A DNA stretch of 37,093 nt from a virus (taxonomy: Duplodnaviria > Heunggongvirae > Uroviricota > Caudoviricetes), in IMG/VR virus record IMGVR_UViG_2740892211_000019. One strand, 5' to 3'. This document shows positions 3,889 to 31,362 of this stretch, piece after piece. The notes beneath the pieces were generated by a model. That model was not told the DNA's origin and made no database searches. It saw only the letters and a program-made list of their open reading frames with translations. How positions within the stretch are numbered: position 1 is the first letter of the stretch; each line of letters opens with the position of its first letter. A program made the translations under genes and the position numbers.

Positions 3889-4155
3889 ATGAACGCAAAA
3901 GAAGAAGGCATTATCAACACATTAAAAAAAATATCAGAAGCGGAAGATGAAATGGCTAAAGATGCCGTGAAGCGTAGCCAACATATGGCAGCACTTCACG
4001 CACTGACCATCGCAAAAATCACCGCTGACGCAGCCAAAATTATTGAGGAACAGGGCAAAGAAATCGACACTCTTAAAACACAGTCAACAGTTGCAGCCAT
4101 GAATCCGTCCAGCATTGGACGCCGCATTTACATTCTTGGTTCGGCAAATACCTGA
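3889..4155 (+). CDS. Hypothetical early protein
   Basis: ORF track; RBS GGAG about 8 nt upstream of the ATG. Confidence 0.5.
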   Translation: MNAKEEGIINTLKKISEAEDEMAKDAVKRSQHMAALHALTIAKITADAAKIIEEQGKEIDTLKTQSTVAAMNPSSIGRRIYILGSANT

Positions 4156-4288
4156 TAACGCCTTACCACACAAAGGAGTCAGAGCTTCTGACAAATCTCC
4201 GCCTGATAGAACGCTCTCAAGCTGTATTCATTGATGACGCGCAACGTGCCGTATTTAACGCATAGGGTTACTGGACAAAGGGGGCGCA

Positions 4289-4492
4289 ATGGCAATTAAG
4301 CATTTTCCCGTCGTTCGCTTTACCTCCAGAGGGCGCGAATACGAGGTCGACGAACGCCTGATTACCACTATCGACAAACATCGTTCGGAAAAGGATGCAC
4401 ACCACATCTACCTCACTGACGGCACTTACTTCTGCGCCACCAACGTGGCGCGGGTGAATCTTATCCGACAGGTACAGGAGCCACGCAGATGA
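4289..4492 (+). CDS. Hypothetical early protein
   Basis: ORF track; stop overlaps the start of the next ORF (4489). Confidence 0.5.
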   Translation: MAIKHFPVVRFTSRGREYEVDERLITTIDKHRSEKDAHHIYLTDGTYFCATNVARVNLIRQVQEPRR

Positions 4493-5142: not shown

Positions 5143-5366
5143 GATTCTCAACCCGATACAGAGCAAAGCGCATAACCGCGCCAGCGGTTTTTTTGTGCGT
5201 ACTGTATTGCCACGTCTTTTTCGCGTCAGAATTATGGCGGGGCGTACGGGGCCGACTTCGGTCGGGCCGGATTCTTTGCTCTCCGGTGTTGAGAACCCTG
5301 TACGTCTCGCCACCCCGAGATTCTCAACTCTGGATGGTGAGTTATTTCTATCACCGAGCAAAGAGG
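5143..5366 (+). promoter_or_regulatory. Structured leader / candidate cis-regulatory RNA with a cUUCGg tetraloop hairpin and mutually exclusive repeat pairings
   Basis: Segment A (5143..5168) GATTCTCAACCCGATACAGAGCAAAG. Segment B (5271..5297) is nearly its reverse complement. Segment C (5317..5333, with GAGCAAAGAGG at 5356..5366 forming the RBS of the downstream ORF) directly repeats A. Hairpin GGCCGAC-TTCG-GTCGGGCC at 5250..5268. Confidence 0.3.
5174..5194 (+). terminator. Rho-independent terminator (AACCGC-gcca-GCGGTT followed by a 7-T run)
   Basis: Hairpin plus T-tract read directly from the sequence, downstream of the 4752..5051 ORF. Confidence 0.6.
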
Positions 5367-5373
5367 CCACACC

Positions 5374-5604
5374 ATGGCAAACCGCAAACAGCACCGCGCT
5401 ATCGCGGAGCGTCGTCACATCCAGACTGAAATCAACCGCAGACTTTCCCGCGCATTCCGCGTCGCTAAAATCATGCACATCAATATGCTGCATGAGCGTA
5501 GCTGCGAACTTTCAAACCTCTACTCATCCGCTGTTTTCAGCTATCTGGCGGATGATCTGCGCGAGCTTCAACAGCTCATCCAGCAGCAAAACAAACTCCA
5601 TTAA
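5374..5604 (+). CDS. Hypothetical small basic protein
   Basis: ORF with AGAGG RBS 8 nt upstream of the ATG at 5374; lies immediately downstream of the structured leader. Confidence 0.4.
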   Translation: MANRKQHRAIAERRHIQTEINRRLSRAFRVAKIMHINMLHERSCELSNLYSSAVFSYLADDLRELQQLIQQQNKLH

Positions 5605-6048: not shown

Positions 6049-8871
6049 ATGACGGCAGAGTACATCAGGGACTGGCAACAACCGCGCCACGCAGTGGGAC
6101 GTGAAGGAACGGGGATCCCCGTTCCTGAATCCGCGCTTTCCTCCTGGCTGGATGCCTACCGGGCAGAGAACGAGCGCCGCCAGGAAATGGCTGATGCGGC
6201 GTTCTCCGCCACGCCGCTGGGCAACCTGATTAATAAAAGCCTGGATGCACAGGAAAAACAGGACAAAACCATCACACTGGCAGGAGACGCCAGAAAACAG
6301 GTACGCGGTGCGGTGGATGAAGCCATGGCCTCGCTGCGCCTGCTGCCGTCCTATCTGCGCGATCCGCTTATTCGCCACCTCTCCTTCCTGCGCAAAAAAC
6401 AGGAAGCCGATCGCCGGAAAGGCAAAAAGAGCTGGCAGGCTGAACGCTACGCGCGCGGAACCCTGCGCAAAATATTCGAACGTCTGGACCGCACCGACCA
6501 CCGCTGGCTGACACCGGGTTATCGCTCCCTTGCCGGACGCGAACGCCTGGATGATTTGCTTTACCTGCCGCAGCTCAACAAGCACCAGATACAGACGCTG
6601 GCCACCATGACGGCGGCGATGTTCAGCAGCACCTTCGAAAAACTCTGCGATGGCTTTGGCGCGACTGATGGCGAGCTGACCATGGATGTAACGCTGAAGG
6701 CGTATCAGATGCTGGCCCGCATGGCGTTACACCTGCACGCCATGCCTCCGCATTATGACGCACTGACAACAGACAAAGACCGGAGGAACGAACCGGACAC
6801 GGAGCTGCTGCCGGGCGCAATCCTTCGCCTGACCTGTGCGGAATGGTGGAAACGCAAACTGTGGCTGTTACGTTGCGAGTGGCGGGAAGAACAACTCCGC
6901 GCCGCCTGTCTGGTTTCCAGAAAAACATCGCCCTATCTGAGCCAGGACGCGTTAAGCGAGTTTCGCGCACAGCGCGAGAAAACACGCGATTTCCTGAAAA
7001 GTTTCATGCTGGAAAACGAAGACGGGTTCACGATTGATCTCGAGACGGTGTATTACGCGGGAGTAAGTAACCCGGTTCACCGTAAGGCAGAAATGATGGC
7101 CACCATGAAGGGGCTGGAACTTCTGGCCGAAGCCCGTGGCGACAAAGCGGTGTTTCTGACTGTCACCTGCCCGTCAAAATACCACGCCACAACAGAGAAC
7201 GGTCATCCGAATCCCAAATGGAACGGGGCCACCATGCGCGACTCCAGCGATTACCTGGTTAACACGTTTTTTGCGGCGGTCCGCAAGAAACTGAACCGCG
7301 ACGGCCTGCGCTGGTATGGCATCCGCACGGTGGAGCCTCACCATGACGGCACCGTGCACTGGCATATGATGGTCTTTGCTCATCCGGAAGAAATCGACAC
7401 CATTGTGTCCCACACCCGCGATATTGCCATTCAGGAAGATCGTCACGAGCTGGGTGATGATATTACCCCACGCTTTAAGGCGGAGTACGTCGACGGCTCA
7501 AAAGGCACACCGACCAGCTACATCGCCACCTACATCGGGAAAAACCTGGACAGCCGTGCCGTGGATGGCATCGACCCGAAAACGGGCAAGCCACGCGTTG
7601 ACCACGAAACCGGAAAATCAATGGCCGAGAGCGTGGAACGCGCCATCGGCTGGGCGCGCCTTCACCGGGTCCGCCAGTTCCAGTTCTTTGGTATCCCCTC
7701 CCGTCAGGTGTGGCGTGAACTGCGCCGCCTTGCCAGCCAGATGGCTCGCAACCCGGAAGGACCGCAACGGCTGAAGGATGACGCAATGGACGCGGTTCTT
7801 GCTGCCGCTGATGCCGGATGTTTTGCCACCTACATAGAGAAACAGGGCGGCGTACTTGTTCCACGCAAGGACTACCTGATTCGCACCGCCTACGACCTCG
7901 CCGATGAGCTGAACGATTACGGTGAACAGAGCGTACAGATTTACGGGATCTGGTCACCGCTCATCGGGGAGTCTTCCCGCGTATGCACGCATCCGGACAA
8001 CTGGAAGCTGGTAAGACGCAAACCGGAAGCGGAAGACAGCGCCCGCGAAAATGGTTTTGACCTTCAGGGCGGCCCTGCCGCACCTTGGACTCGTGGCAAT
8101 AACTGTCCCCGTGTACAGGAAACGGACAACAACGGGACAGAACAGCCGGAAGAACGGCCAGCACCGTGGCCGCAGCTTCCTGACGGCGTTGACGTGAACG
8201 AATGGATGCGCTCACTGAAACGGCACGAACGCCGGGCGCTGATGCGTTCGCTGCGTGACAAACAGGCAAAAAACAGCAGTGATGAAATGCAGAGCTGGAC
8301 ACAGAGCCGCAAACAGCAGCGGCCTTTGCCTGATAACCACGAATTACTCGCTAAAGAATGGCGGGAATCTGCCGAATCTCTCGGCCTGCATATCGGTGAA
8401 CAGCAGATGCAGCACCTGTTACGGGGCGGCAGCCTGTACGTTGACGGCAGCATCATTGCACCGCAGGGATTTGAAATTGTACGCAAACCGGATACCCGCC
8501 CGGACAGCCGAATCACGCAGCTCTGGCAGCGCCTGAGCCGTAATCACGGCGTAAGCAGCACGGAGATCCGCCATAACCCGGTCGCCAGCTATCTGGAACA
8601 GCTGGGGGCATCAGACCCCGAAGCCGCCGCACGTCTGGCATCCACACTTCAGCAGGACCAGAACACCATGAACCCCCCCGTTACCGTGCTTTCTGACATG
8701 CTGCGCGCCATCCGCGACGCAGAGCACGCACAGAGAATCAGTGAAACCACTGAACGTGCCCGCCGCAAAGCAGACCTGCTGCGGGGTGGCCTGACCAGTG
8801 GAAACAAAAAACAGACAGAAACGGGATTCACAAATCCCGTAAATGAGCAAAAAACGCGCCGCGATATATGA
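6049..8871 (+). CDS. A: Replication initiation endonuclease (P2 gpA-like rolling-circle initiator), 940 aa
   Basis: ORF track. Contains the HUH-type metal-binding motif (HHDGTVHWHMMVF) and a tyrosine-bearing block (TSYIATYIGKN) typical of P2 A-family initiators; position matches P2 synteny. Longer than my recollection of P2 gpA. Confidence 0.9.
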   Translation: MTAEYIRDWQQPRHAVGREGTGIPVPESALSSWLDAYRAENERRQEMADAAFSATPLGNLINKSLDAQEKQDKTITLAGDARKQVRGAVDEAMASLRLLPSYLRDPLIRHLSFLRKKQEADRRKGKKSWQAERYARGTLRKIFERLDRTDHRWLTPGYRSLAGRERLDDLLYLPQLNKHQIQTLATMTAAMFSSTFEKLCDGFGATDGELTMDVTLKAYQMLARMALHLHAMPPHYDALTTDKDRRNEPDTELLPGAILRLTCAEWWKRKLWLLRCEWREEQLRAACLVSRKTSPYLSQDALSEFRAQREKTRDFLKSFMLENEDGFTIDLETVYYAGVSNPVHRKAEMMATMKGLELLAEARGDKAVFLTVTCPSKYHATTENGHPNPKWNGATMRDSSDYLVNTFFAAVRKKLNRDGLRWYGIRTVEPHHDGTVHWHMMVFAHPEEIDTIVSHTRDIAIQEDRHELGDDITPRFKAEYVDGSKGTPTSYIATYIGKNLDSRAVDGIDPKTGKPRVDHETGKSMAESVERAIGWARLHRVRQFQFFGIPSRQVWRELRRLASQMARNPEGPQRLKDDAMDAVLAAADAGCFATYIEKQGGVLVPRKDYLIRTAYDLADELNDYGEQSVQIYGIWSPLIGESSRVCTHPDNWKLVRRKPEAEDSARENGFDLQGGPAAPWTRGNNCPRVQETDNNGTEQPEERPAPWPQLPDGVDVNEWMRSLKRHERRALMRSLRDKQAKNSSDEMQSWTQSRKQQRPLPDNHELLAKEWRESAESLGLHIGEQQMQHLLRGGSLYVDGSIIAPQGFEIVRKPDTRPDSRITQLWQRLSRNHGVSSTEIRHNPVASYLEQLGASDPEAAARLASTLQQDQNTMNPPVTVLSDMLRAIRDAEHAQRISETTERARRKADLLRGGLTSGNKKQTETGFTNPVNEQKTRRDI

Positions 8872-8918
8872 AGCGCACACAAAACAGGCAAAAACGGGAT
8901 TTCAGAATCCCGTAAACG
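8818..8918. repeat. Two copies of a ~28-bp palindromic unit (AAACGGGATT-N5-AATCCCGTAAA) about 73 bp apart, directly upstream of parM
   Basis: Copy 1 at 8818..8848 lies inside the last codons of gpA; copy 2 at 8891..8918 overlaps a possible -35/-10 for parM. Read directly from the sequence. Confidence 0.5.
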
Positions 8919-8947
8919 ATTAATTAATCAACATAAGGAAAAGCGAC

Positions 8948-9907
8948 ATGAAAATTTGTATCGACGACGGCTCCACCAACATCAAGCTGGCATGGACTGA
9001 GAATGGCGAACGCCGCAACGCCATCAGCCCGAACAGCTTCAAGTCGGAATGGTCTGCGCCGTTCGGTGGCATGCAGCCCGCGAACTACATGCTTGATGGC
9101 GTGCGCTATGGTTTTGATCCGGTCAGCGATCGCTTTGTCCAGACGACCGACACGCAATACCAGTACAGCGATGTGAATGTAATCGCCATTCATCACGCGC
9201 TGGTCAAATCAGGCATCACGCCACAGGAGGTGGATGTGGTTGTCACCCTGCCACTGAGCGAGTATTTCGACACAAACGCACAGCCGGACATGGCCAACAT
9301 CAACCGCAAAAAAGCGAACGTTATGCGCCCGGTGGAGTACCAGAACGGCGAAGCATTCACTATCCGTAACGTGCGGGTTATGCCTGAATCCATTCCGGCT
9401 GGCTTTAAAGCACTGGCTGACATGAGTCCGTTTGAATCCCTGCTGATTGTGGATTTAGGCGGAACCACGCTGGATGTGGCAAAGGTTCAGGGGCAACTGG
9501 CAGGTATCAGCCAGGTGTTTTGCGATCCACACGTAGGCGTCTCCCTGATGGCCGGTGCCGTGCTGTCGGTGATGGCCGCTAACGGTATGCGTACCAGTCA
9601 CCACATCGCCAATACCATTATCGAACATCGCCATGATGAAGCCTGGTTGCGCCAACACATCCACAATGACGCGCATTACGCCAGCCTGATGGCGGTTATT
9701 CGTGAAAAGGAAGAAACACTGAAACAACGCGTGATCCGCGCGCTGGCGGGTTTTTCGGGTTACGGGCGGGTGATGGTTGTCGGTGGCGGGGCGGAGATTG
9801 TGGCACCCGCTATCCGCGAAGCCTGCGGAGTTAATGCGACTTTCATCGCGGACGGGGTGCCACAGTTTGCTCTGGTTAATGGGCTGTACGCAATGGACAA
9901 GGAGTAA
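8948..9907 (+). CDS. parM: ParM/StbA-family actin-like ATPase (type II plasmid partition NTPase)
   Basis: Translation carries the ParM signature blocks as I recall them from plasmid R1 StbA/ParM: CIDDGSTNIKLAW, YSDVNVIAIHHAL, VMPESIPAGF, LLIVDLGGTTLDVAKV, VMVVGGGAE. RBS AAGGAAAAG before the ATG at 8948. Confidence 0.85.
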   Translation: MKICIDDGSTNIKLAWTENGERRNAISPNSFKSEWSAPFGGMQPANYMLDGVRYGFDPVSDRFVQTTDTQYQYSDVNVIAIHHALVKSGITPQEVDVVVTLPLSEYFDTNAQPDMANINRKKANVMRPVEYQNGEAFTIRNVRVMPESIPAGFKALADMSPFESLLIVDLGGTTLDVAKVQGQLAGISQVFCDPHVGVSLMAGAVLSVMAANGMRTSHHIANTIIEHRHDEAWLRQHIHNDAHYASLMAVIREKEETLKQRVIRALAGFSGYGRVMVVGGGAEIVAPAIREACGVNATFIADGVPQFALVNGLYAMDKE

Positions 9908-9911
9908 ACCA

Positions 9912-10226
9912 ATGACGACACCAACCAGACGGATAAGTTTCTATCTGAAGCCAGTCGCCGTCAATAGTGAACGGGAGGCGTGTAATTACCTCGACAGCCT
10001 GCCAGCCTCTGAACGCAGCCGCGCGCAACGCGCGGCCTTTCTGGCCGGGCTGGCACTCATAAAACGCGATCCTGCATTTGCCTATTGGTTGGCCGAATGG
10101 CCGGAAGAAGGAGCTGCGCCAGCCAAGAATAATATTCAGAGTAAATATGCCAGCACACCTGCCACCGGAAGCAATCACAGCACTAGCGAGATAAGAAAGA
10201 ACATTCAGTCATTTTTCCCAGAGTGA
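9912..10226 (+). CDS. parR: ParR/StbB-like centromere-binding protein (ribbon-helix-helix)
   Basis: ATG at 9912 with AAGGAG upstream, 4 nt after the parM stop. N-terminal beta-strand-like RISFYLKPV, then LDSLPASERSRAQRAAFLAGLAL, which closely matches my recollection of the R1 ParR core. Confidence 0.7.
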   Translation: MTTPTRRISFYLKPVAVNSEREACNYLDSLPASERSRAQRAAFLAGLALIKRDPAFAYWLAEWPEEGAAPAKNNIQSKYASTPATGSNHSTSEIRKNIQSFFPE

Positions 10227-10245
10227 AAACAGGAGAGGAGCATCT

Positions 10246-10707
10246 ATGGCAACTATCCCCAAAAAATGGTTACAACGCAAAATTGCAGACCTTGAATCGT
10301 GTCGTGAAGACATCCCGTTTGGCCTTGATGAAAACGATCACAATATGTTAATCGCACTGAAAATCGCACTCACATCGCTGGAAGCAGAGGCAGTTATGTT
10401 CTGTATATCAGGACAAAATGTAGATTCAGAAGAACATGTATCAACCAGCAAAGCGGTTGTTGATGCCTGGGTTGAAGAATGGAATCAGGTTGACGGAAGT
10501 CCTGGCGAACCACTGTACAAAACTATGCCACTCTACTATCACGCTGCCTTGCCAGCGCCGGTAGTGCCGGAAGAAGCAACTCCGGAAAACGTAGAAATGC
10601 TCTCTGGCTATGTTTCCACATACAAATTAACCGATAGCGAGCGCGATATTGCTGCCGAAATATGGAACGCCTGCCGCGCCGCTATGCTTCATGGGAAAGG
10701 AGAGTGA
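10246..10707 (+). CDS. Hypothetical acidic protein (153 aa), third gene of the parMR operon
   Basis: ORF track; RBS AGGAGAGGAG before the ATG at 10246. No family recognised. Confidence 0.6.
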   Translation: MATIPKKWLQRKIADLESCREDIPFGLDENDHNMLIALKIALTSLEAEAVMFCISGQNVDSEEHVSTSKAVVDAWVEEWNQVDGSPGEPLYKTMPLYYHAALPAPVVPEEATPENVEMLSGYVSTYKLTDSERDIAAEIWNACRAAMLHGKGE

Positions 10708-10708
10708 T

Positions 10709-10972
10709 ATGGCAACTTTAACAAAAAAAGAACGGGCATGGTTGAACGAATTACAGGACGTTCTTGATCGCTGCCCATCACCGAAAAAAATTGGTTTTTA
10801 CACCATTGGCGATAAAAGCATTTACCTGTATGACCTGCGCCGCATGGATGAAATCATGGAGGCTCTTGATAATCGTTCGTCAATGGATTGGTGTGTTGCT
10901 GTCCATGATATGAATGCAGGGTTTGATGAAAAGATTTTGTTCCCCTCATCAGTTGAAAGCACAGCAGGATAA
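10709..10972 (+). CDS. Hypothetical protein (87 aa), fourth gene of the parMR operon
   Basis: ATG at 10709 (MATLTKKERAWLNELQ...) one nt after the previous stop, with GGAAAGGAGAG upstream. No family recognised. Confidence 0.55.
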   Translation: MATLTKKERAWLNELQDVLDRCPSPKKIGFYTIGDKSIYLYDLRRMDEIMEALDNRSSMDWCVAVHDMNAGFDEKILFPSSVESTAG

Positions 10973-11006
10973 GGACCCAGCCAATATACACAACCTATAA
11001 AACACT

Positions 11007-11033
11007 AAAGCGCCTCAGGGGCGCTTTTTGTTT
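11007..11033 (+). terminator. Rho-independent terminator (AGCGCC-tcagg-GGCGCT followed by TTTTTGTTT)
   Basis: Hairpin plus T-tract read directly from the sequence, downstream of the four-gene operon. Confidence 0.7.
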
Positions 11034-11060
11034 GCACAAAAGTGCACAAATTTGCACAAT
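11033..11060. repeat. Three TGCACAA(A/T) repeats at exact 10-bp phasing
   Basis: Copies start at 11033, 11043 and 11053, immediately after the terminator and within the region where the cos site is expected. Confidence 0.5.
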
Positions 11061-11483
11061 TTTTTTGAACGACTTTTTACCCTTCCGGCCCGCATGGCGG
11101 CTGGATCCGTCAAGGATCCGTGCGTGCACAAAAAAACGCGCTTTTTCTACGCGCAGGTGACGGGGGAACAGCCCGCGTTTCAGGGGGTAAATAGCATTCC
11201 CTGAACGATGTCGCAGAGATACAACAGAATGGCTGTATTTCTCACGCTGAGCGTGAAAAAGACGTGAGGGCTTTTGATTTGATGGGGTGAAAGGTAAGGC
11301 CGTCAAAATCGCACTGAGACGGCGAGAACATGCAGTCAACGCGGTGGGATTGCGTAAGAGTCTGGCTGTCGATGATGGCAATAAGCAGGAAAGCGTCGTG
11401 AAATTATCTGATTGATACAGGAGCTGGAGAGTCGGGGCATAAATTTTTTATGCCCCGGCGAAGCAGCAGACAAGCGAAGCGCG

Positions 11484-12530
11484 TCAGGATGTGGGCTGGG
11501 TGTCCAGCAGTGCATAAGGGTTAAAGCGGATCACCTCTTCGCCAAGCCAGTCATTGATGTGCTTCATGGCCTCCATGACGGGCATCAGCTCGTTAATTGC
11601 GTAAACCCGCGCGGCCTTCTCCACATCACCAAACGCACTTTTTTCGCCCGGCATCGCCCCCATCAGTTGCGGCGGAACGCGGTGCGCAGCCAGCACATCA
11701 TCACGGGATGCCGCCTTAACATTCATGAACTCATCCTTTGCGGTGATCTGCTGGAACGGCAAAATTTGCACCCCCTCTTTGCCCCCGTTGGGCGCATGGA
11801 TGAGCACGTTTTTAAACGCACCACCACCACGCGCACCCTGTAGCGTTTCTTTCAGGGAGTCCATGCTTTCGCGGTTTACCTGCGCTGCACCGATGTAGAT
11901 GATGCACCCGGCGTGGGATCCATTGTCGTAATACAGTTTTCTGAACATGTCCGCCGAATGAGACAGGCTGGCCGAGAGTAATGCGCCAAGATATTCCGGC
12001 ATGCCGTAAATTTCCTGGTTAATGTCAGGATTCATCAGGTGGCACACTTTGCCAGGGCGAAACTGAAACGCGTCCTTGCCATCCTGCACATACCACCATG
12101 ATTCAAGATCGCTTCCGCGTCGCATGTATTTCGCCAGGGCGTGCCGTAATTTAAGCGGTTCGCCGAGCATATTGCTTCGAAGCTCAAGGAATGCGTTACC
12201 GAACACAAACCAGTCCAGCGCCAGCGCCGAGAAATCCTGCCGGGAAAGCAGCGGGTGCGGAATATAGCAGCCGAGCAATACATTGCGCTTAAAGTAAAGC
12301 GCAGACTGATGCCAGGACGTTTGCCGGGCAGCTCTTGCCAGACCGTACCAGTCCACCGGGGTTTCGTACCACCGCCCGTTATCAGCACAGTACATATTGT
12401 CCAGCAGGTCATGCCCGGTCAGGCGATAAGGACCATCAAATGTGAATGCACTGAGCGATGATTCTTTCCTGAGCGCATCAGCGAGATCAATGCGTGAACT
12501 CATGCGCACTTTTTTATTTTTTCTGCTCAT
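11484..12530 (-). CDS. Q: Portal protein (P2 gpQ-like)
   Basis: ORF track, 348 aa. Size and position match P2 gpQ; overlaps the large terminase gene by 1 nt. Confidence 0.85.
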   Translation of the reverse strand: MSRKNKKVRMSSRIDLADALRKESSLSAFTFDGPYRLTGHDLLDNMYCADNGRWYETPVDWYGLARAARQTSWHQSALYFKRNVLLGCYIPHPLLSRQDFSALALDWFVFGNAFLELRSNMLGEPLKLRHALAKYMRRGSDLESWWYVQDGKDAFQFRPGKVCHLMNPDINQEIYGMPEYLGALLSASLSHSADMFRKLYYDNGSHAGCIIYIGAAQVNRESMDSLKETLQGARGGGAFKNVLIHAPNGGKEGVQILPFQQITAKDEFMNVKAASRDDVLAAHRVPPQLMGAMPGEKSAFGDVEKAARVYAINELMPVMEAMKHINDWLGEEVIRFNPYALLDTQPTS

Positions 12531-19097: not shown

Positions 19098-19239
19098 CCC
19101 ACCCACATGGGGAAACCTCGGAATATGGGGCGACCGCCTTCTGGATGCACTGGAAACCTGTAACGCGGATAAACGGGCCATTGCTGAACTGGATAAGAGA
19201 ATAGCCGAACTGACACACCAGACGGGAGTAACACAATGA
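18928..19239 (+). CDS. Rz1-like o-spanin lipoprotein (LysC analogue), in the +1 frame overlapping Rz
   Basis: Signal peptide with lipobox LLTGC and a proline-rich mature region. Start may instead be the internal ATG at 18958. Confidence 0.55.
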   Translation: MNSYATILQKMNAPTLCLTLVLLTGCAGTQNAPGPAPSVRLIPQTLTMPVTPPPFPDPPTWGNLGIWGDRLLDALETCNADKRAIAELDKRIAELTHQTGVTQ

Positions 19240-21113
19240 CCAGTAAGAACTTTGCACTGATTACAGCCATGACACAGGCTGAACTGACTCAAAAGGTGAA
19301 TGAACATCTTGCGAAAGGGTGGCATCTTCAGGGGGAGACGCGGGTTGCCTACGAACCCGGCACCCCGTGGTATCTAATGCAGGCAATGGTGGCCGATGGC
19401 ACTACAGACATCTCACCTGATTCCCCCCAGCACGGCAGCGTGCCGGAGTGGTATTACGTGGTGGTACTTGCTGGTCAATCCAATGCCATGTCATATGGTG
19501 AGGGAATGCCGCTGCCGGATTCTTACGATGCGCCCCACCCACGCATTAAGCAACTGGCCCGTCGCAACACAGTGACTCCCGGTGGTAAAGCATGCGCATT
19601 TAACGACATCATTCCGGCAGACCACTGCCTGCATGATGTTCAGGATATGAGCGCACTGAATCACCCGAATGCAGACCTGAGCAAAGGGCAGTATGGCTGT
19701 GTCGGACAGGGCTTGCATATTGCCAAACGCCTGTTGCCTTACATTCCACAGAATGCCGGGATTTTACTGGTTCCATGCTGTCGTGGTGGTTCGGCATTCA
19801 CCCAGGGCGCGGAGGGGACATTCAGCGAGTCCACAGGAGCCAGTCAGGATTCGGCTCGCTGGGGTGTGGGTAAACCTTTATATCAGGACCTGATTTTGCG
19901 CACGAAGGCCGCATTGCAGAAAAACCCAAAAAACATGCTGCTGGCCGTATGCTGGATGCAGGGCGAATTTGACATGAGCGCCGCTACGTACTCACAGCAA
20001 CCTCCGCTGTTTACGGCCATGCTGAAACAGTTTCGTGCGGACATTACCGAGTTTAACACGCAGTGTCATGGAGGCAGAGCGGCAAGTGTGCCATGGATTT
20101 GTGGTGACACGACGTATTACTGGAAAAACACCTACGGCACGCAGTACGACACCATTTACGGGGCGTACAAAAACAGGGAGAGCGACAACGTTTTCTTTGT
20201 GCCGTTCCTGACCGATGGTAGTGGCAACAATACCTCCACCAACGCACCAACGGAAGATCCGGATGCTGCAAGTGAGGGATATTACGGTTCGGCATCCCGA
20301 ACGAACAAAAACTGGGTATCATCAAATCGCCAGACGCATTTCAGCTCATGGGCGCGTCGTGGCATTATTCCCGATCGTATGGCAACCGCTATTCTGAACG
20401 TAGCCGGTCGCACCTTAGCCTTCATCAGTGGTAAGGCACCGGAAATCAAACCCTCGCCCGGCGGCGACACGCCATCGGGGCCGTCTGAAGATGCATCCGT
20501 ACGCACAATCTCCCTGTTGCCGACAGCCGGAGATGCTGCTGCGCAGGGCTGGAGCATTAAGAATGGCGGAATTCAGTTGTCAGAGGGTGTATTTAAGATC
20601 ACCAAGCAGAGCAATAAAACCTGGTCCCTGACGCGCCCGGTGGATGACGCAGTCTCCCTGCTGACACGGGGTGGCAGACTGAGCTGTAAGTTTCGACTGT
20701 CAGGCGCACTGACCAACAATCAGTTCGGTCTGGGAATTTATCTGTATACCGATGTAGCGTTACCTGACGTCGTGGCGATGACCGGGACTGGTAACCCGTT
20801 CCTGATGTCGTTCTTCACCCAGACCACAGACGGCAAACTGAATCTGATGCATCACAAGAAAGCAGGAAACACAAAGTTGGGCGAGTTCGGGAATTACAGT
20901 AACGACTGGCAGACGCTGGAGCTGGTGTTCACCGCCGGCAGTGCCACGGTTACTCCGAAACTGAATGGAGTGGCTGGCCCGGCATTCCAGGTCATAAAAG
21001 ACAGTCTGACACTGGGGCTGAATGCGCTGACGTTAACTGATATCACTAAAAATGCCGCGTACGGCGTCGATATCGGCAGCCTGGTGCTGGAAATCAATAA
21101 TCCCGCAGCATAA
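19236..21113 (+). CDS. NanS-p-like sialate O-acetylesterase (N-terminal DUF1737-like domain, SGNH/SASA esterase domain, C-terminal domain of unknown function)
   Basis: VVVLAGQSNAMSYGEG is the GQSN nucleophile block of sialate O-acetylesterases. N-terminus (ALITAMTQAELTQKVNEHLAKGWHLQGE) resembles the DUF1737 leader of prophage NanS-p proteins. Inserted between the lysis cassette and gpR. Confidence 0.7.
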   Translation: MTSKNFALITAMTQAELTQKVNEHLAKGWHLQGETRVAYEPGTPWYLMQAMVADGTTDISPDSPQHGSVPEWYYVVVLAGQSNAMSYGEGMPLPDSYDAPHPRIKQLARRNTVTPGGKACAFNDIIPADHCLHDVQDMSALNHPNADLSKGQYGCVGQGLHIAKRLLPYIPQNAGILLVPCCRGGSAFTQGAEGTFSESTGASQDSARWGVGKPLYQDLILRTKAALQKNPKNMLLAVCWMQGEFDMSAATYSQQPPLFTAMLKQFRADITEFNTQCHGGRAASVPWICGDTTYYWKNTYGTQYDTIYGAYKNRESDNVFFVPFLTDGSGNNTSTNAPTEDPDAASEGYYGSASRTNKNWVSSNRQTHFSSWARRGIIPDRMATAILNVAGRTLAFISGKAPEIKPSPGGDTPSGPSEDASVRTISLLPTAGDAAAQGWSIKNGGIQLSEGVFKITKQSNKTWSLTRPVDDAVSLLTRGGRLSCKFRLSGALTNNQFGLGIYLYTDVALPDVVAMTGTGNPFLMSFFTQTTDGKLNLMHHKKAGNTKLGEFGNYSNDWQTLELVFTAGSATVTPKLNGVAGPAFQVIKDSLTLGLNALTLTDITKNAAYGVDIGSLVLEINNPAA

Positions 21114-28020: not shown

Positions 28021-28515
28021 TCAGAGCAGCCCCTTAACTGAGCTGGCCGCGCTATTAAGGGATGATGTCACCTTATCTTTGAAGCCGGACAACATATCGC
28101 TGAACGATGAGGATTGCAGGCGCTCCCGCAAATCCTCATCACAGCGTTCAAGAGTCAGTGAAAATTCTATCTTTTTCGCCTTACCGTAGCGATCAAACTC
28201 GGAACGGGTCGTATTCGTTTCAGTCAGTACATACATGCCGTAAATCTGCCCGACACCATCAATCAGAGGCCAGGGCCGTCCTGTATATGCCTGCGTGGTC
28301 AGCAATGAAAGCGACACTTCGCCACCTGTAATTTCAGGATAAAGCACGCCGGAAAGCACAATGCGATCATCACCTGCACCGATATACTGCCAGCTTGCTG
28401 AACGGTTAACGCGTTCATTTTTCACATGCCGCCAGCTTTTGTTTTGCTGTAACTGCTGATGCGGCAATGTGCGCAGCTCAAAAACAAACATGCCGTAGAT
28501 CATCATCATGACCAT
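28021..28515 (-). CDS. U: Tail protein U (P2 gpU-like)
   Basis: ORF track, 164 aa; follows the tape-measure gene on the minus strand. Confidence 0.85.
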   Translation of the reverse strand: MVMMMIYGMFVFELRTLPHQQLQQNKSWRHVKNERVNRSASWQYIGAGDDRIVLSGVLYPEITGGEVSLSLLTTQAYTGRPWPLIDGVGQIYGMYVLTETNTTRSEFDRYGKAKKIEFSLTLERCDEDLRERLQSSSFSDMLSGFKDKVTSSLNSAASSVKGLL

Positions 28516-28521
28516 GACTCC

Positions 28522-31362
28522 TCAATCTTTATCGTAAAAACTGCCACGCCCGGCACGGGCGCGCCGTTCCATCTCTGCCCTGACCATTTCACCGACCAGT
28601 TTCGCCAGTTCGCGGGGATTCTGCGTAACAACGTTATGCAGATGAACATGAATTTCACCGCAAAATCCGGAGACAGCAGGCTCCCGGTTACGGGAAGTTG
28701 CAGGAACTGATGCCACTGGCGATCGTATGGCCTCCGCCACCGGGCGGGAGCTGGCCGCAACAACAGGGACCAGCGCCGGAGGCAGCGGAGCCGAGACCAC
28801 GGGTGTGATATTAATTGCGGGGGGCTTACTGACCTGCGCAATCTTCTGCTCCTGCCACTCCCCACGAACAGCAAGTGCGCGGGGCAGGTTCTTAAAGACA
28901 ATATCGCCGGGGCCAATGCGTTTTTTCGTCTCATCAACCAGCTTACCTGTGTTATCAGCAATTTTGCTGAGTCTGCGTAGCGTCCCGGTATTGCTGTCTG
29001 TGAGCGGTTTGTTGTCTTTGGGTTTATCACCTCCGGTGCCATTGCCATTTTCCACAGGCTTCGGCGGATTGATTTTCGCCAGGTCCCCCTGAAGCAAGGC
29101 AACCTTGTCCTGAAGAATGGCCGCACGCTGTGCGTCTTCGATTTTCTTGCGCGCCCTTTCAGCTTCATCCGGAAGGACGCCAAGTTTTTCAAGTATCCAC
29201 GCCAGCGTATCCAGTAGCATTTTTGCAGGTGTCAGAACAAGCTGTAACGCACCGCCAAGAACGTTACCGAATATCTCGCCAGCACTGGTACATTTATCCA
29301 GCGTTTCCTTACTGGACTCCATCGGTGACAGCAGCGATTTAAACCAGTTAAACACCTGGCTGATCCCGCTTCCGATTGCGTCAAAAACAGGGCCAAACCG
29401 TTCAAAGGTTTCGCGCAACGGAGCCAGCCGTTCCATAATCCCACTGAACACCCCTGCATAAAACGCCTTGATGGGTTCCCAGTATTTCCAGATGAGAACC
29501 GCCGCAGCCACAAACGCAGCAGCAATCAATCCGACCGGACTGAACAGCGCCCCGATAGCGCCTCCCAGTAACGAAATGGAACCCGTCACCATTCCCCATA
29601 ATGCAGGCAGAACCCTGACAACATTCAATGATCCGGTCAGGAGGGAAAAACCAAGACGCAGTTTTGCCAGTGGGCCAGCAAGCACACCAATAGCCAGCGA
29701 CAACGAGCCTATGGTTGCAGTCATTGCCAGCAGAGCACCGCCTGCAACCAGTAGCTGGCGCGTCAGTGCCGGATGGGCCTGCGCCAGCGCCGTCACCTTC
29801 GATACCACCCGCGTGAGCCACTGCGTGACAGAACGCAGCGGACCGTCAATCAGATCTGCAATGCGGATGCGCAACCCTTCCCATGCACTGCCGAGTGATT
29901 TCAGATCGCCGTCAAGGTTGTTGGCCATAACCTTTGCTGTGCGTTCAGCCTCACCGCGCGCGCCTTCAAGTTCTTTTCTCAGTTTGGGTAAGGAGCCGTC
30001 ACCTGCCGCATCAACGAGGGCCATAAATGATGTGAAAGCCTCTTCTCCGGCAATGTCCTTAAAGAACGATACCCGGTCAACTTCCCCGTATTTGCGGGTG
30101 GCTTTATAAAGGTCAGCCAGCAGATCTTCCATCGGGCGCATTTTGCCGTTCGCGTCAGAGACGGACACGCCCAGCTCTTTCAGCGCCTCTGCTGCTGCCT
30201 TTGGCGGTGATGCCAGACGAGCCAGGCTGGCACGCATTGCCGTCCCGGCATCACTCCCTCTGATACCCATATTCGCCAGCACGCCAGCCATCGCTGCGGC
30301 CTGCTCCAGCGATATTCCCAGCTTACCCGCCACCGGACCGGCATATTTCATGGTTTCGCCCAGTGCGCGAAGGTCAGTGTTGGTACGGGTAAACGCTGCA
30401 GTGAGTGTGTCACCGACCCGGTCCATCTGGTCAGCAGAAAGGCCGAACTGCGTCAGGATATTTGAGCCAATATCCGCCGTCTCGCCGAGATCCATACCGC
30501 CAGCCGTTGCCATGCTCAACACGCCGGGAAGCGCAGCCTGAATGGCCTGCGGTGTGAAGCCAGCCATTGCAAGAAATGCCTGCCCACTGGCGGCATCGCC
30601 TGCGGTGAACTGCGTTTCAGAGCCAAGTTTTAACGCCTGCTCACGCAGCGCCTTAAACTGCGGGCTGTTCTGGTCGATTCGCGTCAGCGCCTGAACGCGG
30701 GACATCTCTTTCCCGAACCCGATTGCGGGCTGCAAAAAACGCCCGGCAGCATAGCCGCCCGCCGCTGCCGCACCAATTGCCAGTACACCACCTGTTTTCA
30801 GTTTTCCCGCTGTTTCCTGCGCACGCGAATACCGCTCACGCGCCCGCGTTACACGCGCAAGCGCCTGCCGTTCGCGTTCAAGCTGGTTGTTGTACTGTTC
30901 GGTGCGCCTGATGGCCTGTTGAATGGTGTTATCGCTGCCTGTCAGGGAAATGCCGTGGCGTTTCAGCTCTCCGCCAAGCTCCCGCATTTTCTGAATTTCC
31001 CGTGTGCGCGATTCATTCAGGCGTTCAAGCCGGGTGCTTAACTGCTGCATCAGCTTTTGTTGCTTTTCGCTGAGCACTGTACCCGTGCGTTGTAACTGAT
31101 TAAGGGCGTTAAGCTGGCGTCGTGCTTTCACGATACCCGCATCCGCTTTACTGACAGCGTCGCGGGCGCGCTCAAATGAACGCGCCTGACGCTCGAGATT
31201 TTTGATCGCCCCCTGCGTTCGCTGGATGGAGTCACCAAACTGCCCCATCAGGCGGCGGGCGTTTTCGGCAGGCCGGGTCAGCCTGTCAACGGCGCTGAAA
31301 GCGACCCGGATATCAAGAGTCTTCATTGTCTGCATTCCCGCTGCGAAGTGCCGCCCGCTCAC
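28522..31362 (-). CDS. T: Tail tape measure protein (P2 gpT-like)
   Basis: ORF track, 946 aa; coiled-coil-rich N-terminal part and Gly/Ala-rich hydrophobic segments; synteny. Confidence 0.9.
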   Translation of the reverse strand: MSGRHFAAGMQTMKTLDIRVAFSAVDRLTRPAENARRLMGQFGDSIQRTQGAIKNLERQARSFERARDAVSKADAGIVKARRQLNALNQLQRTGTVLSEKQQKLMQQLSTRLERLNESRTREIQKMRELGGELKRHGISLTGSDNTIQQAIRRTEQYNNQLERERQALARVTRARERYSRAQETAGKLKTGGVLAIGAAAAGGYAAGRFLQPAIGFGKEMSRVQALTRIDQNSPQFKALREQALKLGSETQFTAGDAASGQAFLAMAGFTPQAIQAALPGVLSMATAGGMDLGETADIGSNILTQFGLSADQMDRVGDTLTAAFTRTNTDLRALGETMKYAGPVAGKLGISLEQAAAMAGVLANMGIRGSDAGTAMRASLARLASPPKAAAEALKELGVSVSDANGKMRPMEDLLADLYKATRKYGEVDRVSFFKDIAGEEAFTSFMALVDAAGDGSLPKLRKELEGARGEAERTAKVMANNLDGDLKSLGSAWEGLRIRIADLIDGPLRSVTQWLTRVVSKVTALAQAHPALTRQLLVAGGALLAMTATIGSLSLAIGVLAGPLAKLRLGFSLLTGSLNVVRVLPALWGMVTGSISLLGGAIGALFSPVGLIAAAFVAAAVLIWKYWEPIKAFYAGVFSGIMERLAPLRETFERFGPVFDAIGSGISQVFNWFKSLLSPMESSKETLDKCTSAGEIFGNVLGGALQLVLTPAKMLLDTLAWILEKLGVLPDEAERARKKIEDAQRAAILQDKVALLQGDLAKINPPKPVENGNGTGGDKPKDNKPLTDSNTGTLRRLSKIADNTGKLVDETKKRIGPGDIVFKNLPRALAVRGEWQEQKIAQVSKPPAINITPVVSAPLPPALVPVVAASSRPVAEAIRSPVASVPATSRNREPAVSGFCGEIHVHLHNVVTQNPRELAKLVGEMVRAEMERRARAGRGSFYDKD

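Follow-up and report, generated by a model that had tools for sequence, protein, structure and literature searches.

Organization of the locus

The window, i.e. the whole 37,093-nucleotide stretch of DNA that was analysed, contains an integrated P88-type (P2-like) prophage of E. coli, with the integrase at its left end and the host gene serS at its right end. The first-pass annotation had placed the locus in an integrated prophage, between gpA and the portal gene, in the slot of tin/old in P2; all three statements were confirmed. The genes gpA and portal bracket parM, parR, ORF3 and ORF4. The intrinsic terminator predicted behind the last of these genes was also present. The following features were identified.

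6049..8871, plus strand: gpA replication endonuclease, 940 aa, rolling-circle initiator and upstream partner of the par module (PF05840, E 2e-131)
8804..8846: candidate parC repeat 1 with the palindrome CGGGATTCACAAATCCCG at 8822-8839, inside the 3' coding end of gpA
8877..8919: candidate parC repeat 2 with the palindrome CGGGATTTCAGAATCCCG at 8895-8912, intergenic, 36 nt upstream of the parM start
8948..9907, plus strand: parM, actin-like segregation ATPase, 319 aa (PF06406, PF21523, phrog_691, match to R1 ParM)
9912..10226, plus strand: parR, ribbon-helix-helix centromere-binding adaptor, 104 aa (PF10784, phrog_2515 over the full length)
10246..10707, plus strand: ORF3, 153-aa mosaic cargo protein with modules of the shuffled ead/Ea22-like / DUF551 set (phrog_5117, phrog_660)
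10709..10972, plus strand: ORF4, 87-aa cargo protein of a family confined to Enterobacterales
11007..11027: bidirectional intrinsic terminator ending the rightward gene run, 9-bp stem including 5 GC pairs, then a run of T
11033..11059: array of three TGCACAA copies with 10-bp spacing, at 11033, 11043 and 11053, with a fourth copy at 11125-11131
11484..12530, minus strand: gpQ portal gene, right boundary of the gpA-Q interval (PF04860)

The 3' end of gpA overlaps the first parC-like repeat. The locus consists of two unrelated things, a ParMRC-type segregation module and a cargo hotspot that starts downstream of parR.

ParM and ParR

The product of 8948..9907 had been annotated as a ParM with the actin-fold blocks of R1 StbA, and this assignment was upheld. 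In Pfam, residues 1-157 matched PF06406 (StbA_N; E 2.7e-82) and residues 159-316 matched PF21523 (ParM C-terminal domain; E 1.6e-67), so that the protein has the actin fold and both ParM domains of a type II segregation ATPase. It aligned end to end (residues 2-316) with the R1 ParM structure 1mwk at an E value of 8e-93. The nucleotide-binding and hydrolysis motifs expected of a type II system are intact, the residues DDGSTNIK, MPESIPAG, DLGGTTLD and GGGAE being identical in R1 ParM. In ParM these motifs correspond to phosphate 1, the region of the catalytic Glu, phosphate 2 with the equivalent of D170, and the adenosine loop, respectively. The parM gene is under purifying selection: dN/dS over 70 alleles, none of which contained an internal stop, was 0.056 and thus lay between the values of the portal gene (0.011) and gpA (0.14), with dN biased downward by the choice of the 83 related loci through exact ParM peptides.

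The parR gene starts 5 nt past the parM stop and encodes the small ribbon-helix-helix adaptor that is found directly downstream of parM in type II systems. Residues 6-66 matched PF10784 (E 3.8e-25), while the match to pB171 ParR (2jd3) was weak (E 4e-3). The family assignment of the first-pass annotation was therefore correct, but the core it had read as ERSR..R..AAL.AGLAL actually reads ERSRAQRAAFLAGLAL. Across 44 ParR variants, MTTPTRRISFYLKP at the N terminus and NI[QR]xxFPE at the C terminus were nearly invariant and the linker was hypervariable; the DNA-contacting N-terminal strand showed a single change, I9L. At the sequence level, the tail motif [RK]xN..x.(L/F)FP was common to these 44 variants, four distant phage ParRs and an IncI1 plasmid ParR.

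Candidate parC repeats and expression signals

The repeats to the left of parM are two 43-nt copies, which are 81% identical, lie 73 bp apart and each contain an 18-bp palindrome of the form CGGGATT-N4-AATCCCG. No other exact match to this form occurs in the 37-kb window. Both palindromes were kept in 49 distinct sequences upstream of parM, with conserved arms and a variable centre. Part of the conservation of repeat 1 may reflect the encoded protein, because this repeat lies in coding DNA. Relatives whose ParM is 62% identical show the same layout of two sites, spaced by about 72-73 bp, and a counterpart of repeat 1 was located at about -130 in those from Plesiomonas and Hafnia. The two palindromes differ from the long iteron arrays present upstream of parM in D6 and pEK204. 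Both candidate parC palindromes also scored as terminator-like hairpins on the minus strand.

Between gpA and the ORF4 stop neither a plus-strand terminator nor, in a crude promoter scan, a consensus sigma-70 promoter was found, and the one strong terminator of the gene run from gpA to ORF4 is that at 11007-11027. The parMR genes are seemingly transcribed with the early replication operon, a timing that we infer, and would for that reason be silent in a lysogen. They could also possess a weak, ParR-regulated promoter of their own.

Backbone status and distribution of the module

In P88-like (Xuanwuvirus) prophages, gpA, the candidate parC sites, parM and parR together make up a fixed block of the backbone. 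Among 5426 complete E. coli genomes parM was present in 1279 (24%) and the C-terminal part of P88-type gpA in 1355. The order gpA-parM-parR was invariant in 83 related loci, and the gpA-parMR block remained intact when joined to a different packaging module whose portal was only 30% identical. The nearest relatives of the window ParM (54-62% identity) were found in Plesiomonas, Hafnia, Serratia and Enterobacter, and all of them occupied the gpA-portal interval of a P2-like prophage; this deep synteny refers to the genomic context of four outlying lineages. In a neighbour-joining tree calculated without support values, the ParMs of these four genera and that of the window formed one clade, which included neither the plasmid ParMs nor that of phage D6. 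Among true plasmid ParMs the highest identity was about 52%, and PLSDB contained no plasmid ParM between 60 and 95% identity.

Cargo region and TGCACAA array

ORF3 had no Pfam match, including to the ead/Ea22-like family (PF13935). It is composed of three separately exchangeable modules, individual ones of which are common to proteins carrying PF13935 or PF04448, and its N-terminal 50 aa are common to other cargo variants. Because modules are shared although ORF3 has no Pfam match of its own, it is a mosaic relative of ead/Ea22-like proteins and not a demonstrated member. ORF4 is also encoded on IncI2 plasmids, where mobC and a relaxase-like gene lie nearby, and by the early regions of lambdoid phages.

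The turnover of cargo was high: from the parR stop to the TGCACAA array, 63 loci showed 36 arrangements, with 59 ORF families. Within the 83 related loci, the pair of ORF3 and ORF4 was restricted to the window and one near-identical genome, and the whole four-gene stretch was present in only 65 of the 5426 genomes, compared with the much larger number carrying parM. The four genes had been regarded as one operon, and a comparison of prophages had been suggested to see whether they travel together; they do not, and ORF3 and ORF4 form one cargo set among many that replace each other, unconnected with ParMR. The highly variable gene content that Rousset 2022 described for the cos-side hotspot of the gpA-gpQ interval applies here to ORF3 and ORF4 only; parMR is invariant.

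The distance of the TGCACAA array from the portal stop was 431-451 nt whatever the length of the cargo (about 60 loci). The array was missing from 8 of 10 loci in which gpA-parMR is joined to a different packaging module, and the linear Xuanwuvirus record P884B11 ends 17 nt to the right of it. The array is a backbone element beside the probable cos site, forming the right border of the cargo hotspot and lying outside the par operon. Repeats do occur on both sides of the four genes, as had been noted earlier, but the fixed distance to the portal stop shows that the right-hand set is not a flank of the operon.

Earlier descriptions and related systems

The parMR module is already known; RefSeq names both genes, they are routinely annotated, and the module has been described in print. 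Pfeifer 2021 (PMC7969092) listed P88 among putative phage-plasmids, and Rousset 2022 (PMC9122126) reported a 'putative plasmid partitioning system' in about a quarter of E. coli P2-like prophages; an episomal state was proposed in both studies. This is the same module, and the prevalence found here agrees with that of Rousset. Table S5A of Rousset (PMC9122126) contains many StbA + Plasmid_stab_B arrangements, among them one with WP_000211293 (this ParR), WP_000201248 (ORF3) and WP_000224227 (ORF4) and an intervening transposase gene. Both studies saw the genes as part of the hotspot or as a feature of plasmids and only speculated on episomal maintenance, whereas parMR is here assigned to the backbone together with gpA, with the hotspot starting downstream of parR. 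The first-pass annotation had allowed for a routine, annotated module of P2-like phages with a known function. The module is indeed routine, annotated and published, but the part concerning a known function did not hold.

The module shares the order parC-parM-parR, with the candidate repeats in the place of parC, a full-length ParM alignment and the Pfam family of ParR with R1 ParMRC and with the ParMR systems of IncI and IncF plasmids; the ParR of IncI1 pEK204 also has the C-terminal NIxxxFP tail in common with the window ParR. In contrast to R1-type plasmids, the carrier of the module is a P2-like phage that integrates and has a rolling-circle replicon based on gpA, and the ParM of the module belongs to a separate phage-associated clade. 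While the R1-type centromere comprises about ten short iterons, the candidate site consists of the two palindromes described above. A search of 50,697 phage records gave one further ParM homologue (48% identity), which belongs to the ParMR pair (StbA/StbB) of phage D6. Phage D6 differs in being a 91-kb P1-like plasmid prophage that never integrates and in carrying many TCTCA-type iterons upstream of parM. The D6 annotators themselves wrote 'similar to phage P88 StbA protein'.

A segregation module on an integrated phage had been considered to have no obvious role, but two experimentally tested precedents exist. The srpMRC locus of SXT/R391 (Carraro et al. 2015, PMC4489591) lowers the loss of the excised, rolling-circle-replicating ICE. 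Like the window module it is a type II actin-type locus of a normally integrated element with a rolling-circle-type initiator acting on the excised circle, and its small centromere srpC, with four half-site repeats upstream of the operon, likewise offers few sites. It differs in belonging to an ICE and not a phage, and SrpM and SrpR are distant from R1 ParMR, of which the window proteins are close family; moreover, function has been proven for srpMRC, while the window module is known from its sequence. The second precedent is AlpAC of prophage CGP3 in Corynebacterium glutamicum (Donovan et al. 2015, PMC4446434), without which the phage does not replicate efficiently. Its genes are switched on early, its adaptor binds to sites in front of the operon that encodes it, and circular phage DNA is linked to filaments. 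AlpC, however, belongs to another actin-like family, and CGP3 is a large defective prophage of a Gram-positive host.

Proposed function of the module

ParMR probably serves to move phage DNA that is circular and not integrated, while the phage becomes established, excises and replicates; the cargo is separate from it. ParR dimers would bind both CGGGATT-N4-AATCCCG palindromes at the end of gpA, and the conserved C-terminal tail of ParR would capture ParM filaments, whose ATP-driven growth would push circular phage genomes apart. The module could be used after infection and before integration, after excision, and when gpA rolling-circle replication releases monomeric circles. The presumed benefit would be that copies are neither lost nor clumped at cell division or at the start of packaging.

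A more far-reaching reading, which we regard as possible but somewhat less than an even chance, is that ParMRC is built into the gpA rolling-circle replication module of an old P2-like clade. It would then act as a cytoskeleton coupled to replication, separating or positioning monomeric circles both at establishment and in lytic growth, possibly with a facultative episomal carrier state. If correct, this would be the first replication-coupled cytoskeleton in E. coli phages and a Gram-negative counterpart of CGP3 AlpAC.

The idea of Pfeifer 2021 (PMC7969092) and Rousset 2022 (PMC9122126) that P88-like phages are stable phage-plasmids, kept by ParMR as low-copy episomal prophages, appears unlikely to us. 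It draws on these two published suggestions, on the use of a 48% identical ParMR by D6, a true plasmid prophage, and on the P2-like phage KS14, a proven plasmid prophage; in addition, the circular 34,461-bp 'plasmid' record NZ_CP148288.1 is a complete P88-like phage including the integrase, and this phage was found, 100% identical over 24 kb, in the chromosome of another strain of the same project. However, an excised or induced replicative form can also give one closed circle in one assembly, and such a record does not establish stable maintenance. The window prophage is integrated next to serS and is not maintained as an autonomous replicon, as a phage-plasmid would be, and 1441 of 1443 places of parM in complete E. 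coli genomes were chromosomal, the other 2 being on plasmid records. Six PLSDB records contained a ParM at least 95% identical; five were large replicons of 227 kb to 1.4 Mb and the sixth was the 34-kb circle. The sole other small 'plasmid' match, NZ_CP049283 with a partial parM, was a linear, IS1-ridden prophage fragment. Furthermore, all P88-like phages have retained the integrase, and their gpA rolling-circle replicon lacks plasmid-type copy control, whereas KS14 has RepB and ParA.

It was also proposed that ParMR, alone or with ORF3 and ORF4, works in the lysogen, where it excludes incoming R1-like plasmids through centromere incompatibility or acts in defence or anti-defence. The gpA-gpQ slot is a known hotspot of anti-phage systems in P2-like phages, and the occurrence of ORF4 near mobC in IncI2 plasmids and in lambdoid early regions would be in keeping with a role of ORF4 on its own in the entry phase or in anti-defence. 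Nevertheless, we consider this proposal very improbable. Plasmid exclusion is disfavoured by the approximately 52% identity to the best true plasmid ParM and by the weak match (E 4e-3) of ParR to a plasmid ParR, and a centromere specificity shared with plasmids is unlikely because the repeats in front of parM are unlike the D6 and pEK204 iterons. The defence reading gained no support either, as ParM, ParR, ORF3 and ORF4 had no match in PADLOC-DB v2 at E values up to 1, ParMR and ORF3/4 are unlinked across loci, and the strong conservation of parMR as a backbone gene is the opposite of the turnover of defence cargo.

That parMR is an inert plasmid par locus, captured by a successful prophage lineage and hitch-hiking with it without a phage function, would fit with P2, 186 and many other P2-like phages managing without parMR and with no parMR phenotype ever having been reported, but it is hardly credible in view of the low dN/dS over the 70 alleles, the absence of disrupted copies among loci with a full-length parM, the synteny still seen in four other genera at ParM identities as low as 54%, the near invariance of the ParR DNA-binding strand and tail beside a freely drifting linker, and the limit that the capsid sets to phage genome size.

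Gene order and linkage of parMR to gpA

The prophage was classed as P88-like (Xuanwuvirus, Peduoviridae). Its integrated, P2-like character, proposed in the first-pass annotation, was borne out by the genes for integrase, repressor and cox at the left and by gpD and ogr, followed by the host gene serS, at the right. The ORF positions proposed there agreed with the ORF coordinates from gpA through the portal gene, and the intrinsic terminator expected at the end of the gene run was located at 11007-11027.

Features from gpA to the portal gene
6049-8871, gpA, replication endonuclease of 940 aa
8804-8846, left repeat, first copy, 43 nt, with palindrome CGGGATT-N4-AATCCCG
8877-8919, left repeat, second copy, 43 nt, with the same palindrome
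8948-9907, parM, 319-aa product
9912-10226, parR, 104-aa product
10246-10707, ORF3
10709-10972, ORF4
11007-11027, intrinsic terminator
11033-11059, three TGCACAA copies at exact 10-bp spacing, with a fourth at 11125, 72 bp on (array 11033-11131)
11484-12530, minus strand, portal gene

The corresponding interval of P2 itself, between gpA and the portal gene Q, is occupied by orf91, tin, old and cos. In RefSeq, a chromosomal copy that is nearly identical carries the labels 'plasmid segregation protein ParM' and 'plasmid partitioning/stability family protein', with the other two genes given as hypothetical proteins. Elsewhere in the window, a 625-aa gene at 19236-21113 (+), for which the RefSeq twin gives a DUF6645 domain protein, lies between the lysis and tail genes, a position that looks like a second accessory-gene slot.

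Linkage was assessed in 83 loci whose ParM shared at least 97% identity with that of the window. The gene parR followed parM in all 83, and gpA preceded parM in every locus that extended far enough upstream. The view that the four genes form one unit did not hold, as the ORF3-ORF4 pair was limited to the window and its near-identical twin among the 83 loci; ORF4 occurred without ORF3, beside other neighbours, in six. The cargo region, bounded by the parR stop and the TGCACAA array, ranged from 535 to 3725 nt and comprised 36 gene arrangements and 59 ORF families (63 loci). Among 5426 complete E. coli genomes, the P88-type gpA C-terminal region was present in 1355 and parM in 1279, and the whole four-gene stretch in 65. 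The module parMR thus moves with gpA as phage backbone and is not hotspot cargo; the truly variable region, in which defence and anti-defence genes may be sought, begins 3' of parR.

In ten viral and genomic loci (L004, L022, L044, L046, L048, L052, L059, L073, L078 and L084) gpA-parMR was joined to another packaging module, with ParM 98-99% and the portal protein just 30% identical to those of the window. Replication and partition genes thus pass together, as one block, between different P2-like lineages by recombination. An ISVsa5 (IS4-like) transposase lay inside the parM-ORF4 stretch in some E. coli genomes (matches H40-H42, e.g. NZ_CP091712.1). A 226-kb contig of 'Vagococcus sp. WN89Y' (locus L005, NZ_JBQPOM010000071.1) carried an E. 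coli-type P88-like prophage with ParM 97% and portal 100% identical; this Firmicute-labelled assembly is probably contaminated or mislabelled.

Identity and age of ParM and ParR

The assignment of the first two genes to ParM and ParR was upheld by profile searches. The 319-aa product matched both Pfam ParM domains (E 2.7e-82 and 1.6e-67), and the solved structure of R1 ParM aligned with it over the whole length (E 8e-93), with the phosphate-1, catalytic, phosphate-2 and adenosine motifs kept. The 104-aa product matched PF10784 (E 3.8e-25), and the pB171 ParR structure was a weak match. In 44 ParR variants the first 14 residues, presumed to be the DNA-contacting strand, and the last nine, NI[QR]xxFPE, were almost invariant, while the linker between them was hypervariable. 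The tail motif was also found in the ParR of the IncI1 plasmid pEK204 and in distant phage ParRs. DNA similarity from phage to phage broke off within parR.

Among 72,556 plasmid records, six had a ParM match of at least 95% identity, five of them on large replicons (227 kb to 1.4 Mb) and the sixth on the 34-kb circle discussed below; matches of 60-95% identity were absent from these records, and true plasmid ParMs reached at most about 52%. Homologues in 50,697 phage records were confined to P88-like phages and the P1-like phage-plasmid D6 (48%). The nearest relatives in a collection of 5.8 billion proteins came from Plesiomonas and Hafnia (62%), Serratia (59%) and Enterobacter (54%). All four lay within P2-like prophages in the same slot, in the order gpA, zero to two small ORFs, parM, parR, cargo, portal and terminase, and a neighbour-joining tree computed without support values placed them together with the window ParM and separate from D6 and the plasmid ParMs. 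From these identities, the shared slot and the grouping, the association of ParM with P2-like phages is old and not a recent capture.

A candidate centromere upstream of parM

The first-pass annotation had described repeats flanking the operon on both sides. Only the left pair, upstream of parM, is a candidate part of the module; the right-hand TGCACAA array proved to be backbone. Exact copies of CGGGATT-N4-AATCCCG were limited to the two left repeats in the window. A comparison of 49 different upstream sequences showed both palindromes conserved but variable at their centres. In the relatives from Plesiomonas and Hafnia, two GGGAyy...AAnCCC elements occupied unchanged positions with a spacing of about 72-73 nt, while in the Serratia and Enterobacter relatives these were replaced by inverted repeats with GGGAAC. 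The palindromes are candidate ParR sites and, judged by their sequence conservation, a putative two-site centromere common to several genera. Covariation of ParR allele type with palindrome sequence was looked for and none was found, which fits the almost invariant N-terminal strand of ParR. Whereas D6 and pEK204 carry many short iterons upstream of parM, the window has two palindromes; srpC of SXT/R391 is a tested precedent for a centromere of just four half-sites.

The window gpA is about 180 residues longer than the 761-aa A protein of P2 (P2 coordinates 28034-30319), and its extra C-terminal part ends in the first palindrome.

The right border of the hotspot

The distance from the TGCACAA array to the portal stop was 431-451 nt in nearly all loci (about 60), regardless of cargo length. 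The array was missing in 8 of the 10 loci with a swapped packaging module, in which the upstream palindromes were still present. Considered as a second centromere, it was rejected as the obligate parC on account of its absence from these eight and its fixed distance from the portal gene. Similarity to P2 was of no use in locating cos, whether by searching for the cohesive end of P2 or by aligning its cos junction to 10973-11490; an indirect marker was therefore taken from P884B11, a linear Xuanwuvirus record that ends 17 nt to the right of the array (window position about 11078). Rousset et al. (PMC9122126) sited cos in the gpA-Q interval. Taken together, these results most likely tie the array, which forms the right border of the hotspot, to packaging and cos; one possibility is that terminase or a host factor binds it at the cos of P88-like phages.

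An RNA explanation for the region was discarded: Rfam returned only a sub-threshold match to gyrA RNA at 11425-11478 (+) (E 0.03; 22.2 bits, gathering score 45), and the palindrome variants were without compensatory changes. The match coincided with a perfect hairpin, CGGGGCATAAA/TTTATGCCCCG, immediately downstream of the portal gene, which is most likely the Q-P operon terminator rather than a gyrA element.

ORF3 and ORF4

Neither ORF3 nor ORF4 matched PDB sequences, and a Pfam profile search with ORF3 gave no match. ORF3 was a mosaic of three modules, found separately in ead/Ea22-like and DUF551 proteins. The ORF4 family (87 aa) was confined to Enterobacterales, every member being named hypothetical, and an identical protein adjoined Ea22 genes in a lambdoid phage. 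Both ORFs are promiscuous cargo and, like the right-hand repeats, unrelated to parMR; an entry-phase or anti-defence role for them is only a guess.

A protein identical to ORF4 (WP_000224227) was encoded twice, at 4083-4346 and 5337-5600, on the IncI2 plasmid p75-02_2 (locus L089, NZ_CP019690.1). Both copies preceded the same 171-aa hypothetical gene and lay a few kb from mobC, traL and the large LPD7-domain gene, with a relaxase-like gene also close by, a region that is possibly the first to enter the recipient in conjugation.

Proposed role of the module

A crude scan between gpA and the ORF4 stop found neither a plus-strand terminator nor a consensus sigma-70 promoter, which suggests that parMR is transcribed with the early replication operon. 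Rolling-circle replication of P2 yields monomeric circles. The best reading is that ParMRC would act on circular, non-integrated phage DNA before integration, after excision and during gpA-driven replication. Such a module had been thought to have no obvious role on an integrated element, yet two tested precedents make action on circular, non-integrated DNA ordinary for such elements. In SXT/R391, an ICE whose relaxase initiates replication at oriT, srpMRC reduces loss of the excised element (PMC4489591), and AlpAC connects circular CGP3 DNA to actin-like filaments and is required for efficient replication (PMC4446434).

A stable plasmid-prophage state is rather improbable. One record supports it, a circular 'plasmid' of 34,461 bp that amounts to a complete P88-like phage; over 24 kb this phage matches a chromosomal prophage of another strain at 100% identity. 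Against such a state, 1441 of the 1443 parM sites counted in complete E. coli genomes were chromosomal. A 26.8-kb Shigella 'plasmid' considered as a second episome was a linear, IS1-ridden prophage fragment. Exclusion of incoming R1-like plasmids by ParMR is unlikely because ParM and ParR are both distant from their plasmid counterparts. The suggested defence or anti-defence role together with ORF3 and ORF4 found no backing, with zero defence-profile matches for the four proteins and zero gene linkage. An inert passenger would hardly explain the deep synteny or the parM dN/dS of 0.056 and lack of internal stops in 70 distinct alleles (portal 0.011, gpA 0.14), a ratio biased downward in dN by the choice of loci through exact ParM peptides.

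Relation to earlier work

Pfeifer et al. 2021 (PMC7969092) flagged P88 as bearing partition genes, Table S5A of Rousset et al. (PMC9122126) gives the ParR, ORF3 and ORF4 of the window by accession, and the D6 annotation mentions the P88 StbA protein. The ParMR module of P88-like phages is therefore already known, both as observation and as hypothesis. Added here are the linkage of parMR to gpA as backbone, a phage-associated ParM clade (from the tree without support values), the cross-genus two-site centromere candidate and the separation of the right repeats and both ORFs from parMR. In the literature on P88, PhiSM and Xuanwuvirus the par genes are annotated only, without functional work. About a quarter of complete E. 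coli genomes, including O157:H7, O104:H4 and ST131 strains, hold an actin-type segregation module inside an integrated phage. If ParMR moves non-integrated circles, this would explain how P2-like phages escape genome loss before integration or after excision, and integrating phages, ICEs and plasmids would be less sharply set apart. Tests of the module are within easy reach, since both P88 and PhiSM can be cultured and form lysogens in K-12.
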